Positions 47,235 through 50,126 of a stretch of 64,000 nucleotides of DNA are shown here, in pieces (the first letter of the stretch is position 1; each line of letters begins with the position of its first letter). The notes under the pieces are model-generated. The model did no database searches. It saw only the letters and a program-made list of their open reading frames with translations, and had not been told where the DNA came from. The translations under genes were made by a program, and so were the position numbers. Origin of the DNA: Candidatus Hydrogenedentota bacterium (GTDB taxonomy: Bacteria; Hydrogenedentota; Hydrogenedentia; Hydrogenedentales; CAITNO01); contig JAKOTZ010000197.1 of the NCBI GenBank assembly GCA_029776995.1, positions 168 through 64,167 on the forward strand, given 5' to 3'.

Positions 47235-50126
47235 TCACGCCGCAGCTTCCGCACCTAAATGGTTCAACATTTCCTGCGCCATCTCCACGGTCAGGTCCTG
47301 TCCGATCAGTTTCGCGAAGGCCGCAATCTTTTTCAGCGCGCCGGTCATCTTCCGCACGTCGCCCGGAACCCGCATCGCGATGACCCCCAGCACCTCTTCC
47401 GGAACGGCCACGCCCAATTCCGAGGTCCGGTGCCGCAGGATCTTCATGCGCGTTTCCCATTCCGGCGCTTTCAGTTCCGCGACGATCCCGCTGGCAAACC
47501 GTGAAACCAGCCGCTGTTCCAGCAGGCCCAGACGGTCCGGCGCCTTGTCCACCACTATAATAATCTGTCTTTGCTCCTGGTGTAAAGCATTGAAAATATG
47601 GAAAAATTCCTCCTGCGCTTCAACCCTTCCCCCCAGGAACTGGATATCGTCCAGGATCAGCACATCCCAGTGGCAGTAATTCTCCCGGAACGCGTCCAGG
47701 GCGTTTTCGGCGGCGGCTTCCGCCAGGCGGCGGGCAAAGCGGCTTGCTGAAACGTAGCCCACCCGGGGCGGACTTCCTTTTTTTCCCTTTTGCCGCAGGA
47801 TGGCATTGCCGATCGCGCACACCAGATGGGTTTTGCCTGTTCCCACGCTTCCGTAAAGAAACAGCGGATTGTATTCACCCCCCGGGGATTCCGCCACGGC
47901 CTGGGCGATCTTGAAGGTGAACGCGTTGGCCGCCCCGGGGAAAAAGGTTTCAAAGGTCAGCGTCGCCAGCGGCTGTTCCGATTCCAGGGCCGCCAGCATT
48001 TTTTCATCGGCTTCGGCCCAGGCCTGGTCCGCTTCGGCAGACGGGCCGGGAGGGCCGCCAAACGGCGCGACCGACGCCAGCCGTTCTTTTTTCCGGCGGA
48101 CCTGGTCCTGCCGGTTGGCTTCCTCCATCAGGTGGCGTTCCAGCAGTTCAGCCACCTGCCGGGCAGACTGCCCGGCTGCTTCCGCCAGTTGCGCGAGGCG
48201 TTCCTGGCGCTCAGTCTGGTCTGATTTCACGTCGGTCAGGGAGGCCAGGGTTGCTTCAGCGAGCTGGGCCAGGCGGTTTTCCTGCGCTTCCCGGGATGCG
48301 CGCGTTTCCCGGACCACGGTTTCCAGGGCTTCCCGCATGGCTTCCGCCAGCGCGGATTCCCGGGTTTCCGACCGCTCCGCGATGGACGCCACCGCTTCCC
48401 GGACGGCATGCTGCAGCCGTTCCGCCAGCGCGCTCAGGGCTTCCTGTTCCGCCTCGGCGGATTTATCGCGCTGGGTCAGGGCCGCTTTCATCTGGACCAG
48501 CATGGCCGACATGGCCTCTTCGACGGCCGTGCCGACCCCTTCCTGCAGGCTGTGGGCCAGCCTGTCCCAGTCCGGCGGAGCCAGTTCCTGCCGCATGCCC
48601 GACAGCGCTTCCGATGTTTTTTGCAGCGTTTCTCCGACCGGTTCCATCGCGTCCCGAACCGCCGCCTTCACGGCCTCCCGCGTGGCCTGCGCCCAGGATT
48701 CCACATCGATCTGCGGCGGCTGGGGCCGTTCGGCTTCCTGGGCCATCAGTTGCCGGATCGGATCGCTCAGCGCGTTTACCGCGCTGGAGATGGTTCCCGC
48801 CACGGAGTTTTCCAGGTCTTCCGTGAGCTGTTTCAGCGCCTGTTGCAGCGTCGCGCCCTGGTCCGCCGGATCGTTAGCGGCCGGCGGACGGAGGGTTTCG
48901 CTCAGCGGCGCCAAACCGTCCCGCACCGCCTGGGCGACGGCGGTCCGCAAAGCATCCAGGTCCAGCGCGGAGGGGACAGCCGGAGCGTTTTGTTCGCGGG
49001 GCTCCGGGGGTGGCGCCGCGTTCTCCCTAACCCGGACGGCTTCAGCGACCGCTTCCCGGATTTCTGAAGCCAGCGATGAAAACGACGCGCTGATCTGTTC
49101 CTGAAACGCATCAAACGCGGGCCTGAGCAGTGCCGCGGGATCCGCCGGCGCGGCCGGAGCCGCAGGTTCCGCGGGAGCAGGCTGCAGGGCGGATTTCAGT
49201 TCGATGAGGCTTTCCCGGAATGCCGCCTGCATGGCCGTCGCCAGGCTTCTGGCCAGTGCGTCCGGGTCCATCGGCGGCGCCATGGCCGCCGCATCGTGGG
49301 CCGGTTGCGGCGGGGCGATCCGGATAGGTTTTTCGGCGTGTTCCTCCCGGGGGATCTCCGCTGGAGGCGTTTCGGTATACGTTTCCAGTTCCGCGGACGC
49401 GGCGCGCTCTGATTCCCGGATCGTGATTTTTTCCGGAGGGGCCGCGGGCGCTGCCGCGGGCGGGGTTTCCGCCTTCGGCGGAGGGGCGGCCGTTCCTCCG
49501 GCCGCGTGGGGTATGCCAAACGAGGCCGCATCTTTTTTGGGTTTCTTCCCGAACTGCCGTTCCACCACCGTGGCGAAGTGGTCCCAGTCGCACAGGATCG
49601 GTTTAATCCGCAGGTTGGGGCACAATCCCCGCACTTCATCCAGGGCAGCCTCGTCGAGGGGATCGATCATGGCCACGGTCAGGATACGCCCCAACTTGTC
49701 TATGGGCAGCAGTTTCAGCCGCAGGCAGACTTCTTCCGGCACCAGTTCCAGCGCCTGCTTATTGATGCTGTAGTCCAGCAGGTTCAGGTGGGGAATATTG
49801 AACTGTTTGACCACGAACTGCCGAATTGTGTCGTGGGTAACGTACCCCAGGGCCACAAGGCTCTGGCCCAGAAATCCCCCGTGTTCCTGCTGGTGCCTGA
49901 GTCCCTCAGCCAGCTGCTGGGCGGTTATGATGCCTTCTTCCACCAGCATCTCACCCAGCTTTTTCCGTTCCGGCGCCTGGCCGGATGGGTGCGGGACCGC
50001 GCGGCTCATTACCATTACCGGGCTCTCCGATGGCACGTATTCCAGTACGCGTATTGTAGCACGGCTGATCCTCTCGCGGGGAAGGTTTATGGTCGTGGTT
50101 CGGTCGGTATCCCGGCGGATTTCCAA
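47235..50126 (-). CDS. Large fusion protein: N-terminal GspE-N/MshEN-like domain, a long Ala/Pro/Glu-rich coiled-coil linker, and a C-terminal DnaA domain-III-like AAA+ ATPase (Hda-like, lacking DnaA domain IV)
   Basis: N-terminal motif [25 protein letters not shown]. The C-terminus reads [45 protein letters not shown] ... ILDDIQFL, matching DnaA domain III, but there is no HTH after it. The true start may be about 50009 (MSRAV...). Confidence 0.7.
   Translation of the reverse strand: [963 protein letters not shown]

Follow-up and report, generated by a model that had tools for sequence, protein, structure and literature searches.

A fusion of an MshEN domain to a DnaA-type AAA+ module beside pilB in Hydrogenedentota: a putative c-di-GMP-responsive regulator of type IV pilus extension

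Introduction

Control of the type IV pilus extension ATPase PilB by c-di-GMP can be exerted in trans, as in the FimX-PilZ-PilB system of Xanthomonas and by FimW in Pseudomonas. The start of replication in Caulobacter is tied to pili and c-di-GMP, and TadZ/CpaE and FlhG, ParA/MinD-type ATPases that come from DNA segregation, position pilus or flagellar machines. The relation among FimX, PilZ and PilB is mentioned in PMC12943098. The c-di-GMP motif of the MshEN domain was defined, together with mutational data, in PMC5013675; the substitutions G11L and G40I abolish the c-di-GMP response of V. cholerae MshE, and ligand binding has been lost in many MshEN domains (PMC5013675). An extended (R/K/L)LG consensus is given in PMC11731258, which also reports that the GSPII-B domain of PilF binds c-di-GMP with a Kd of 6 nM by hydrophobic stacking, with Lys and Leu at the positions of the stacking arginines.

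Here we describe a gene in which an MshEN domain is joined to the ATPase domain of the replication initiator DnaA. It was found in a window (the whole stretch of DNA analysed) of 64,000 nucleotides from a Candidatus Hydrogenedentota bacterium. The fusion is conserved across this uncultured phylum and is a previously undescribed protein; a literature search found no description of an MshEN-DnaA(III) fusion.

The fusion gene

An earlier note, made from the sequence alone, had read the gene as an ORF of 963 aa. The ORF is indeed unbroken over 47235-50126 of the minus strand, but this length is that of the maximal ORF from an upstream TTG at 50126, and translation probably begins at the ATG at 50015. 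The database gene call P0001, 100% identical to the fusion of the window, has 926 aa.

47235-50015, minus strand: MshEN-spacer-DnaA(III) fusion CDS, 926 aa, ATG at 50015, stop codon at 47237-47235
50023-50028, minus strand: GGAGAG, a Shine-Dalgarno-like sequence read from the sequence, with a 7-nt spacer to the ATG

The protein has three parts, an MshEN/GSPII domain, a spacer of about 520 aa and a complete DnaA domain III. The two end domains had been recognised in the earlier note, and HMM searches matched both of them, PF05157 (MshEN) with E=3.7e-15 and PF00308 (Bac_DnaA) with E=1.1e-51; PDB matches and fold comparisons agree.

The N-terminal domain

49551-49961, minus strand: whole MshEN/GSPII domain, residues 19-155 (PF05157, PDB matches, AF2 model)
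49803-49961, minus strand: putative c-di-GMP-binding unit of 53 residues, residues 19-71 (NF053729)

The AlphaFold (AF2) model, with pLDDT >90 over residues 20-155, has the MshEN fold, i.e., a four-helix bundle followed by an alpha/beta subdomain, and superposes on the V. cholerae MshEN domain with bound c-di-GMP (5HTL; Foldseek TM 0.75-0.80, rmsd 2.8-3.3 A, 31% identity). By sequence, the best PDB matches were the N-terminal domains of PilF, PilB and MshE, the closest being PilF of the Thermus DNA-uptake machine. The domain is also colinear with the N-terminus of the neighbouring PilB (28% identity, E=3e-24), of which it is a paralogue.

The c-di-GMP unit consists of motif I (24 residues), the spacer QEHGG (5 residues) and motif II (24 residues). 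Both motifs are of the (R/K/L)LGxxLLxxGLLxxxxLxxxLxxQ type. It scored 59.1 bits against the NCBIfam model NF053729 ("c-di-GMP_motif", cutoff 38), which was also matched at E<=1e-5 by 40/40 sampled members of the family. Motif residues were counted over 146 distinct N-termini of the fusion family. G11 was Gly in 141 and G40 in 139, the positions L10, L14, L25, L39, L43 and L58 were hydrophobic in nearly all, and Q61 was Gln in 127; the c-di-GMP-contact positions (G11, G40 and the Leu clusters) are thus conserved at 94-100%. The turn glycines are less well kept (G18 in 93/146, G47 in 98/146). Conservation within the N-terminus is highest in the MshEN_C half, where P75, Y82, C97, D106, K107 and the stretch LRIKPILC are invariant. 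The c-di-GMP-contact residues are under selection, and we infer that the domain binds c-di-GMP.

As a signature of the family, the first position of motif II is Phe in 143 of the 146 N-termini. Such a Phe, like the less well kept turn glycines, may count against c-di-GMP binding.

The spacer

49278-49532, minus strand: Pro/Ala-rich segment predicted to be disordered, residues 162-246 (AF2 pLDDT <50, composition)
48081-49265, minus strand: helical spacer, residues 251-645 (AF2, sequence listing)

The middle of the protein had been described as a single Ala/Pro/Glu-rich coiled coil of about 500 aa, which held only in part. Residues 162-246 have the expected composition (Ala 26%, Pro 20%, Glu 12%) but are predicted to be disordered, and residues 251-645 are modelled as eight helices of 22-92 residues each with Pro-rich breaks between them (pLDDT 55-80), built from amphipathic units of degenerate sequence (e.g., LxxAVxxAVRxA). 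In the model, none but the last of these helices (554-645) has a length that would suit a coiled-coil stalk. No Pfam family matched the helical spacer (251-645). Across the fusion family the length of the spacer ranges from 220 to 825 residues, with a median of 394.

A DnaA module without its DNA-binding parts

47250-47969, minus strand: DnaA-type AAA+ module, domain IIIa and IIIb lid, residues 683-922 (PF00308, 8BV3/8BTG, Foldseek, AF2)
47829-47852, minus strand: Walker A, GSVGTGKT, residues 722-729 (alignment; kept in 45/45 fusions)
47646-47660, minus strand: Walker B, LILDD, residues 786-790 (D789 and D790 invariant)
47499-47513, minus strand: box VII, RLVSR, residues 835-839 (arginine finger R839, Arg in 45/45 fusions)
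47352-47354, minus strand: sensor II arginine R888 (Arg in 45/45 fusions)

The best PDB match of the C-terminus was domain III of B. subtilis DnaA (8BV3/8BTG; 196 bits, 40% identity), and the model, with pLDDT >90 over the module, superposed on 8BV3 with a TM of 0.93 and an rmsd of 2.1 A (Foldseek). Residues of the AAA+ module were compared between 45 fusions and 48 true DnaAs. No variation was seen in Walker A, Walker B or sensor II, 43/45 fusions keep sensor I and as many the box VII arginine, and the initiator-specific motif (ISM) retains its QEEFFH helix. R839 aligns as the equivalent of the arginine finger R264 of B. subtilis and R285 of E. coli. The columns of E. coli V211 and R245, ssDNA-contact residues of the H/B motifs, were placed on B. 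subtilis DnaA by what we take to be an offset of 21 residues. The Ile/Val column of the ISM (B. subtilis I190), I/V in 48/48 true DnaAs, holds A (17), S (6), L (6), K (4), M (4) and others in the 45 fusions; the R245 column holds a basic residue in 40/48 true DnaAs but Glu in 36/45 fusions, and the AID-1 Arg column is Cys in 31/45. The roles of E. coli V211, R245 and R285 are described in PMC10325909. The residues with which DnaA contacts ssDNA thus appear to have been selectively lost, while those of the ATPase and the arginine finger were kept.

The absence of domain IV, claimed earlier, was confirmed. Pfam (PF08299) found no match in the fusion, the ORF ends 4 residues past the module, and a tblastn search of the window plus 590 kb of related loci (655 kb in all) with domain IV from 44 genuine DnaAs gave 0 matches in any frame. 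The 33/33 homologous ORFs likewise stop 0-9 residues past domain III, whereas true DnaAs run about 100 residues further. Domain I (DnaA_N, PF11638) had no match in the Pfam search of the fusion. The DnaA equivalog TIGR00362 scored 285.7 bits, under its cutoff of 343.9, with only positions 99-339 of the 437 of the profile aligned, and the Hda profile TIGR03420 reached 89.8 bits (cutoff 194.8); in the PDB search the module scored 196 bits with DnaA vs 54 with Hda. A beta-clamp motif (QL[SD]LF or QLxLxL) was found in 0/106 family members. Since domain IV is absent, the ssDNA and AID-1 positions are replaced and there is no clamp-binding motif, the fusion is neither DnaA nor Hda, as the earlier note had held.

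Some pipelines name members of the family "chromosomal replication initiator protein DnaA". This name is wrong and could mislead the prediction of origins in Hydrogenedentota genomes. Together with the fact that the canonical dnaA of Hydrogenedentota was not located in the searches made, the label would fit a fusion that is the real initiator, as a split or degenerate DnaA, or else an assembly or frameshift artefact. We consider both extremely improbable. Against them stand the missing domains I and IV, the uniform ends of the homologues and the low TIGR00362 score, and neither dnaN nor any other replication gene was found among the window ORFs scanned, nor was there a cluster of DnaA boxes (TTATCCACA at <=1 mismatch, 5 found vs 5.8 expected in the window). 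The same architecture also recurs in >120 database clusters and independent assemblies. A more radical arrangement, in which Hydrogenedentota use a non-canonical initiator system involving the fusion, is formally conceivable.

DnaA modules devoid of domain IV were also seen in other architectures, namely tandem copies, fusions to TPR repeats or zinc ribbons, and stand-alone genes. Such modules point to a family of "orphan" initiator-type AAA+ switches that has so far been overlooked.

The pil neighbourhood

45423-47144, minus strand: pilB, type IVa pilus extension ATPase (TIGR02538 646 bits, PF00437 E=1.4e-135)
44237-45322, minus strand: pilT, pilus retraction ATPase (TIGR01420 480.7 bits vs cutoff 319.1)
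42597-44237, minus strand: PAS-HisKA-HATPase sensor kinase in PilS-like position (Pfam; conserved in the block)
41127-42539, minus strand: REC-sigma54 activator-HTH_8 response regulator in PilR-like position (Pfam; conserved in the block)

The four genes that had been noted beside the fusion lie on its strand (41127-47144), pilB following after 90 nt. In 32/32 loci whose downstream sequence extends to 1 kb or more, the fusion gene is followed directly by pilB, on the same strand and 12-341 nt away. After pilB come pilT, the kinase and the regulator in 22 of the 24 loci with at least 7 kb; the flanks beyond this block vary. A survey of related genomes, which the earlier note had proposed, found the architecture in about 30 species-level genomes, all apparently Hydrogenedentota, with the pil synteny held. 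From these loci the fusion gene appears to be locked beside pilB across the phylum. An independent cluster in one contig (L084), lying between pilD and pilB, contains MshEN-DnaA fusions together with a gene for MshEN only and a gene for DnaA-III only.

The c-di-GMP motifs of the PilB of the window are degenerate (KLEDML, with G11 replaced by E; SLPQLL, with G40 replaced by P), and the PilB of L084 again has TLP in motif II. Over 30 cognate PilBs, G40 is Gly in none (P11, A9, V5, Q3, S2) and G11 in only 12. Lacking the glycines needed for binding, the cognate PilB would be blind to c-di-GMP; we infer this from the point-mutant data, since the window PilB still scores 41.6 bits with the motif HMM, just over the cutoff of 38.

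The position at the pil genes might also be explained by DNA uptake or competence, with a DnaA-like filament at the pilus base handling incoming single-stranded DNA. In many bacteria natural transformation is driven by type IV pili, the N-terminus is nearest to PilF of a DNA-uptake machine, and domain III of DnaA forms filaments that bind ssDNA. We find this explanation very unlikely, as the ssDNA-contact positions are precisely those lost (A/S/L/K/M at the ISM column, Glu at the R245 equivalent) and the conserved block has no com genes.

A regulator of the pilus motor

Since it has no DNA-binding parts of DnaA and is placed just before pilB, the fusion is most probably a regulator of the pilus rather than a replication protein. 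More specifically, we propose, with a probability of about 50%, a regulator of the type IV pilus extension motor that is gated by c-di-GMP and forms oligomers in an ATP-dependent manner. The fusion would be a trans-acting, c-di-GMP-sensing accessory of PilB. Its MshEN domain, being a paralogue of the PilB N-terminus, would take it to PilB or to the docking site of PilB on the pilus platform. The C-terminal module would use ATP and assemble head-to-tail through the arginine finger as DnaA does, but without DNA, and the assembly would serve as a switch or scaffold to control the timing or place of PilB activity. Control by c-di-GMP, which elsewhere is exerted in cis in PilB or MshE, would here have moved to a separate protein. 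The c-di-GMP-responsive or pilus-associated AAA+ regulator suggested in the earlier note is thus considerably strengthened, as a proposal, by the constant pairing with pilB, the pattern of glycines and the loss of ssDNA residues.

Several observations count against the pilus-regulator reading. The adjacency to pilB could reflect co-regulation rather than physical contact, the contact with PilB or the platform being deduced from gene context and sequence; 9/30 cognate PilBs carry Ala, not Pro, at G40; and the module is nearer to bona fide DnaA than to Hda. We know of no secretion ATPase on which a DnaA-type AAA+ module acts.

A scaffold or landmark of the pilus that does not sense c-di-GMP, in which MshEN serves only for docking and an ATP-dependent polymer positions or clusters PilB, would fit the pilB synteny equally well. 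TadZ/CpaE does a comparable positioning for Tad pili, a docking-only MshEN would resemble the N1 domain of the T2SS GspE, the best conserved half of the N-terminus is MshEN_C, and the spacer, with its widely varying length, is tether-like. In addition, many MshEN domains do not bind ligand (PMC5013675). We hold this scaffold to be unlikely, however, because the c-di-GMP-contact residues, with no obvious docking role, are nearly invariant in the fusions, and their counterparts in the adjacent PilB have decayed; from a purely structural role one would expect the reverse.

Given that the oligomerisation interface is kept, the fusion could still dock onto DnaA. Its module would then hetero-oligomerise with the real DnaA, and c-di-GMP or the status of the pilus would gate initiation; it could act as an Hda-like arginine-finger trigger of ATP hydrolysis or as a filament cap unable to hold ssDNA. 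Both the profile and the PDB scores place the module closer to DnaA than to Hda, the arginine finger, box VII arginine and nucleotide pocket that are kept form the surfaces between DnaA protomers, and the loss of ssDNA contacts with the interface retained is the look of a dominant-negative capper. The link of pili and c-di-GMP to replication start in Caulobacter would also fit. Still, the fusion adjoins pilB in 32/32 loci and never dnaA or dnaN, DnaA boxes are not enriched in the window, the AID-1 arginine of the DnaA-DnaA interplay is replaced, and without a clamp-binding motif in any of 106 members the fusion cannot work as Hda does. L084, moreover, encodes several DnaA-III modules alongside MshEN genes, which suggests that they assemble with each other. 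Coupling to replication in this manner is therefore decidedly doubtful. About equally doubtful is the broader view that the module recognises the DnaA of the cell and makes the fusion a link among pilus motor, c-di-GMP and replication, by which surface or biofilm signals at the pilus base would switch replication through capping or inactivating DnaA oligomers.

Returning to the regulator of pilus extension, if true it would add a new class of output to the MshEN family of c-di-GMP receptors and would be, to our knowledge, the first case of a replication initiator ATPase core used outside replication. The c-di-GMP sensor appears to have moved from PilB/MshE to a separate protein while the site in PilB decayed, so that the control of pilus extension by c-di-GMP could be tested with two purified proteins.

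Comparison with known systems

In fold the N-terminus matches the MshEN/GSPII receptors (V. cholerae MshE 5HTL, T. thermophilus PilF GSPII-B, M. xanthus and Geobacter PilB). As in these, two motifs of 24 residues flank a spacer of 5, and the Gly, Leu and Gln residues that contact the ligand are conserved. At the two positions of the stacking arginines it carries Lys and a hydrophobic residue, as PilF GSPII-B does. It differs in the Phe that starts motif II and, unlike PilB, GspE and MshE, the protein has no T2SSE ATPase (PF00437, no match), the spacer and a DnaA-type AAA+ module being found instead; a DnaA-type output is absent from the MshEN outputs listed in PMC5013675 and its supplement.

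With DnaA (B. subtilis 8BV3/8BTG, T. maritima 2Z4R, A. aeolicus 2HCB/3R8F) the fusion shares the AAA+ core and lid, Walker A/B, sensors I and II, box VII, the arginine finger and the QEEFFH helix. It is devoid of domains I, II and IV and has other residues at the ssDNA-contact and AID-1 positions, and the gene sits neither at an origin nor beside dnaN. Hda/HdaA are likewise made of DnaA domain III with an arginine finger and no DNA-binding domain, but the similarity is much lower; the fusion has no N-terminal clamp-binding motif, and its module sits at the C-terminus of a protein of 550-1200 aa encoded in a pil operon.

TadZ/CpaE and FlhG offer an analogy, i.e., an ATPase family from chromosome biology put to use in a surface-appendage machine; theirs is a deviant Walker A P-loop whereas the fusion has an initiator-clade AAA+, and no homology is claimed. 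The FimX-PilZ-PilB and FimW receptors belong to unrelated families (degenerate EAL/GGDEF and PilZ vs MshEN and DnaA-type AAA+) and have no ATPase module, but the logic proposed here matches theirs, in that the extension ATPase would be regulated by a distinct c-di-GMP receptor protein.

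A fusion gene directly before pilB

The gene analyzed here codes for a fusion of an MshEN domain, a long spacer and domain III of DnaA (its AAA+ module), and is located directly before pilB. It had been noted earlier as an ORF of 963 aa at 47235-50126. The single ORF is indeed uninterrupted, though on the minus strand, and the 963 aa are counted from a TTG at 50126. We prefer the ATG at 50015, where reading of the sequence shows GGAGAG upstream with a 7-nt spacer and the product has 926 aa, i.e., the length of a database gene call (P0001) that is 100% identical to the fusion. 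Residue numbers follow this 926-aa form unless stated.

The fusion gene and its neighbors on the same strand

50143-51192, minus strand: ORF of 349 aa, immediately upstream of the fusion
47235-50015, minus strand: fusion, 926 aa
45423-47144, minus strand: pilB, after a gap of 90 nt
44237-45322, minus strand: pilT
42597-44237, minus strand: PAS histidine kinase
41127-42539, minus strand: sigma54-type response regulator

In all 32 related loci with at least 1 kb of sequence downstream (or in all 30, with one genome's three copies taken as a single locus), the next same-strand gene after the fusion was pilB, 12-341 nt away. Where the sequence extended at least 7 kb downstream (24 loci), pilT came next in 22, followed by the kinase and regulator genes; outside this five-gene block the genes varied. 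Compared with the window copies, identity across loci was 51-77% for PilB and 26-43% for the kinase. Conserved gene order is commonly read as a sign of a functional link, and over such divergence the pairing of fusion and pilB points to one.

The 349-aa ORF matched no family in Pfam, NCBIfam or PADLOC and had no counterpart beside the fusion at any other locus compared, and on both grounds it was ruled out as part of the unit. Other candidates were also rejected. A c-di-GMP riboswitch or other upstream RNA was discarded with Rfam, whose sole match was a tRNA at 23497-23569, and a sigma54 promoter for the pil block because motif matches were below chance expectation. The scans for sigma70 promoters and terminators stayed at background level and showed no terminator between the fusion and pilB. 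The only PADLOC match was a weak one between the helical spacer and the ZorA tail (E=7e-4), in which no stretch passed by itself; we take it to be compositional, and the fusion was rejected as a defence-system component.

Other genes of the window are worth recording. The gene of a 716-aa lytic transglycosylase (SLT domain and five LysM repeats; 38954-41104, plus strand) is convergent with the pil block and meets it at its end. A protein with a prepilin-type N-methylation motif and DUF1559 (57198-58499, minus strand) adjoins a MacB-type permease, an ABC ATPase, an HlyD-like adaptor and an outer-membrane efflux protein (region 57198-63969, minus strand), and at 453-2408 (minus strand) a protein of 651 aa joins a Ser/Thr protein kinase to an FGE-sulfatase (formylglycine-generating-enzyme-like) domain.

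Domain architecture and absence of domain IV

The domains proposed for the two ends were borne out by Pfam, with MshEN at residues 109-191 (E=3.7e-15) and Bac_DnaA at residues 723-883 (E=1.1e-51), both in the 963-aa numbering. The N-terminus also scored 59.1 bits with the NCBIfam model NF053729 'c-di-GMP_motif' (cutoff 38). In an AlphaFold model built from a 40-sequence family alignment, residues 20-155 and 690-922 had pLDDT values above 90. By Foldseek, the N-terminal domain resembled V. cholerae MshEN with c-di-GMP (5HTL; TM 0.80, 31% identity) and the C-terminal module B. subtilis DnaA domain III (8BV3; TM 0.93, rmsd 2.1 A, 40% identity), and PDB sequence searches agreed with both assignments. 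The region in between had been described as an Ala/Pro/Glu-rich coiled coil of about 500 aa. The Ala/Pro-rich stretch is there, but it is predicted to be disordered and is followed by a run of amphipathic helices, the last of 92 residues, rather than by one coiled coil; the model has disorder at residues 162-246 and 656-679 and eight helices at 251-645 (pLDDT 55-80). These helices recur loosely as degenerate units recognizable by eye only; BLAST self-comparison found no internal repeats and Pfam no family in the spacer. Family members have between 220 and 825 residues separating MshEN from the DnaA module (median 394), and the spacer behaves like a tether.

The absence of domain IV held as well: the ORF ends four residues past the AAA+ lid. 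The DnaA model TIGR00362 gave 285.7 bits (cutoff 343.9), covering only profile positions 99-339 of 437, and the Hda model 89.8 bits (cutoff 194.8). With both scores under their cutoffs, no domain IV, and the clamp-binding motif found in 0 of 106 family members, the protein is, as had been proposed, neither DnaA proper nor a plain Hda. The earlier note had left room for a hidden domain IV or a frameshift. A tblastn search with the domain IVs of 44 genuine DnaAs, covering 655 kb (the window plus every Hydrogenedentota locus), gave no matches. The frame stops 0-9 residues past the module in 33 homologous loci, whereas genuine DnaAs from the same scan mostly extend about 100-110 residues beyond it. 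That the fusion is the real initiator of the organism, or an artefact, is therefore scarcely credible. The window and each locus hold just one DnaA-like sequence, and neither dnaN nor other replication genes were found among the window ORFs scanned. A replication origin in the window was also rejected, with DnaA boxes at chance level and a GC skew without switch.

Distribution of the family

A word-indexed search of 5.8 billion proteins gave 167 significant matches to the fusion. The best 120 of them all had the MshEN plus Bac_DnaA architecture (550-1049 aa) and, where the sources give organism names, belonged to Candidatus Hydrogenedentes or Hydrogenedentota. In an exhaustive HMMER search of 50%-identity representatives, most of the best 150 matches were fusion-type proteins with the DnaA module at the extreme C-terminus (roughly 45-77% identity). 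Scanning one genome per GTDB species, we found the full-length fusion in about 30 genomes. The record titles read Hydrogenedentota, -entes or -entales in 16 genomes, 'uncultured Nitrospirales' or 'Nitrospiraceae' in 10, 'uncultured bacterium' in 5, and 'FCB group bacterium' and 'metagenome' in 1 each. The Nitrospirales or Nitrospiraceae titles (loci L006, L007, L009, L011, L015, L018, L020, L027, L028 and L030) all come from ENA TPA MAG assemblies, most of them named 'binchicken' and the others SRP co-assemblies. Their PilBs are mutual best matches of Hydrogenedentota-titled PilBs at 79-86% identity (e.g., 85.5% between L011 and L017). Therefore, these titles are probably misassignments, and we think that the family belongs to a single lineage.

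NCBIfam holds no dedicated model for the family, and the sources name its members 'ATP-binding protein', 'DnaA/Hda family protein' or 'chromosomal replication initiator protein DnaA', the last of which is wrong. We found no description of the architecture in the literature within our search scope, outside which most subscription journals fall.

Canonical DnaA and other modules without domain IV

No canonical Hydrogenedentota dnaA appeared among the matches of the genome scan and the exhaustive search. The best genuine DnaAs in the latter came from Chloroflexota and Acidimicrobiia (44-48% identity), and one representative, P0263, was an ordinary dnaA locus. DnaA is nearly universal in bacteria, and we assume for this reason that Hydrogenedentota genomes also carry a normal dnaA.

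The best non-fusion match of the genome scan (L034:5510-10762, in the Candidatus Sumerlaeota MAG JADFCV010000006.1) was rejected as the DnaA of that organism, being a 1750-aa TPR-repeat protein with a terminal DnaA domain III and no domain IV; its neighbors are radical-SAM and glycosyltransferase genes, with no pil genes. Several other proteins of about 580-700 aa (P0157, P0178, P0184 and P0199 among them) have two tandem DnaA domain III modules without MshEN, an architecture of which we know no description. Most lack domain IV, and P0205 has about 100 residues past the second module. One such gene in Gemmatimonadota (L085:8001-10094, RFFQ01000173.1) is surrounded by large ORFs without family match, and two bactofilin genes are located a few genes upstream of it. 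P0262 (1084 aa) and P0265 (1356 aa) extend 100-200 residues past the module, with zinc ribbons in this extension. In P0235, P0238 and P0243 it is N-terminal and followed by about 400 residues, which in P0235, the one of the three scanned, matched no Pfam family.

The C-terminal DnaA-type module

We aligned the modules of 45 fusions and 48 genuine DnaAs (B. subtilis numbering, on which E. coli residues were placed by what we take to be a 21-residue offset). Walker A (G154, G156, K157, T158) and Walker B (D214, D215) are common to both groups, as are R260 of box VII and the Asp of sensor I. So are the finger Arg (R264, E. coli R285) and R313 of sensor II, each of them Arg in 45/45 fusions. However, the fusions differ at positions that DnaA needs for DNA work. 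For V211, R245 and R285 of E. coli we follow the roles given in PMC10325909.

DNA-related positions in genuine DnaAs (n=48) and fusions (n=45)

ISM residue (B. subtilis I190, E. coli V211): DnaAs, Ile/Val 48; fusions, Ala 17, Ser 6, Leu 6, Lys 4, Met 4, others
E. coli R245 equivalent: DnaAs, Lys/Arg 40; fusions, Glu 36
AID-1 Arg (E. coli R227 equivalent): DnaAs, Arg 35; fusions, Cys 31

With the ATPase and assembly residues kept and the DNA-contact positions changed, the module looks like an active ATPase still able to assemble head to tail that has lost DNA handling. We consider a role of the fusion in DNA uptake very unlikely. In a rough neighbor-joining tree, to be given little weight (no bootstrap, short internal branches), the fusion modules formed one clade, loosely together with other modules lacking domain IV and apart from genuine DnaAs.

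Another possibility is a coupling to replication, in which the fusion would hetero-oligomerize through its module with DnaA itself. Bearing on this is a second lineage, found through the exhaustive-search representative P0143 on a contig of the JGI metagenome 3300068090 (L084). Its cluster (L084:1738-16490) contains, in order:

gene 1: pilD
gene 2: 921-aa protein with MshEN and two DnaA domain III modules
gene 3: 421-aa MshEN-only protein
gene 4: 246-aa stand-alone DnaA domain III protein
gene 5: P0143, 1876 aa (MshEN-DnaA...DnaA)
gene 6: 480-aa Glu/Arg/Pro-rich protein
gene 7: pilB, its product 50% identical to the window copy, with motif II 'TLP', i.e., Pro at the position of MshE G40

MshEN, DnaA domain III and PilB are thus associated here too, in a shuffled domain order and partly even as products of separate genes. 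This suggests that at the pilus motor the DnaA modules assemble among themselves and not with the replication initiator, which makes coupling through DnaA quite unlikely.

The N-terminal domain and c-di-GMP

The fusion's N-terminal domain aligns colinearly with that of the neighboring PilB (28% identity, E=3e-24), of which it is a paralogue. In MshE the c-di-GMP unit is made up of two motifs of 24 residues each and a spacer of 5; the ligand is contacted by backbone amides at the position-3 Gly of each motif, by two leucine clusters and by two glutamines, and the variants G11L and G40I lose the c-di-GMP response (PMC5013675). We compared these positions in 146 distinct family N-termini and the N-termini of 30 cognate PilBs, i.e., those encoded beside a fusion gene.

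c-di-GMP motif positions (V. cholerae MshE numbering) in fusions (n=146) and cognate PilBs (n=30)

G11: fusions, Gly 141; PilBs, Gly 12, Pro 15, Glu 2, His 1
G40: fusions, Gly 139; PilBs, Gly 0, Pro 11, Ala 9, Val 5, Gln 3, Ser 2
Leucine clusters: fusions, hydrophobic in nearly all; PilBs, L10 and L39 Leu/Ile in 30/30
Q32: fusions, Gln 103, Lys/Arg 35; PilBs, Gln 18, His 11
Q61: fusions, Gln 127; PilBs, Gln 26
First residue of motif II: fusions, Phe 143; PilBs, Ser 16, Asn 6, Pro 4, Thr 3, Gly 1

By these residues, the predicted sensor is kept in the fusion and decayed in the motor that accompanies it; the window PilB (residues 7-59) has the degenerate motifs KLEDML and SLPQLL. Mainly because of this complementary pattern we favor c-di-GMP sensing in trans, and a scaffold working independently of c-di-GMP seems unlikely. 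The PilB N-terminal domain is otherwise well conserved across the 30 related PilBs despite G40 never being Gly, which suggests its retention for a function other than ligand binding.

In the MshEN_C half of the fusion, C97, C132 and C142 (in a context including EEVC) show complete or almost complete conservation in the family, and a fourth Cys, in CKIPH, occurs in most members. The cysteines may form a metal or redox site.

The best-supported model, to which we give a probability of roughly one half, is a trans-acting, c-di-GMP-sensing accessory of the type IVa extension motor that oligomerizes in an ATP-dependent manner. The N-terminal domain would bind c-di-GMP, its likeness to PilB would target the fusion, and the ATP cycle of the module would have a consequence for the motor. 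The Phe at the start of motif II departs from the original consensus. In PilF of T. thermophilus, the two motifs of GSPII-B start with Lys and Leu; c-di-GMP is bound through hydrophobic stacking (Kd 6 nM), and the authors of that work widened the consensus to (R/K/L)LG (PMC11731258). The Lys/Phe pair of the window fusion fits this Lys/Leu pattern.
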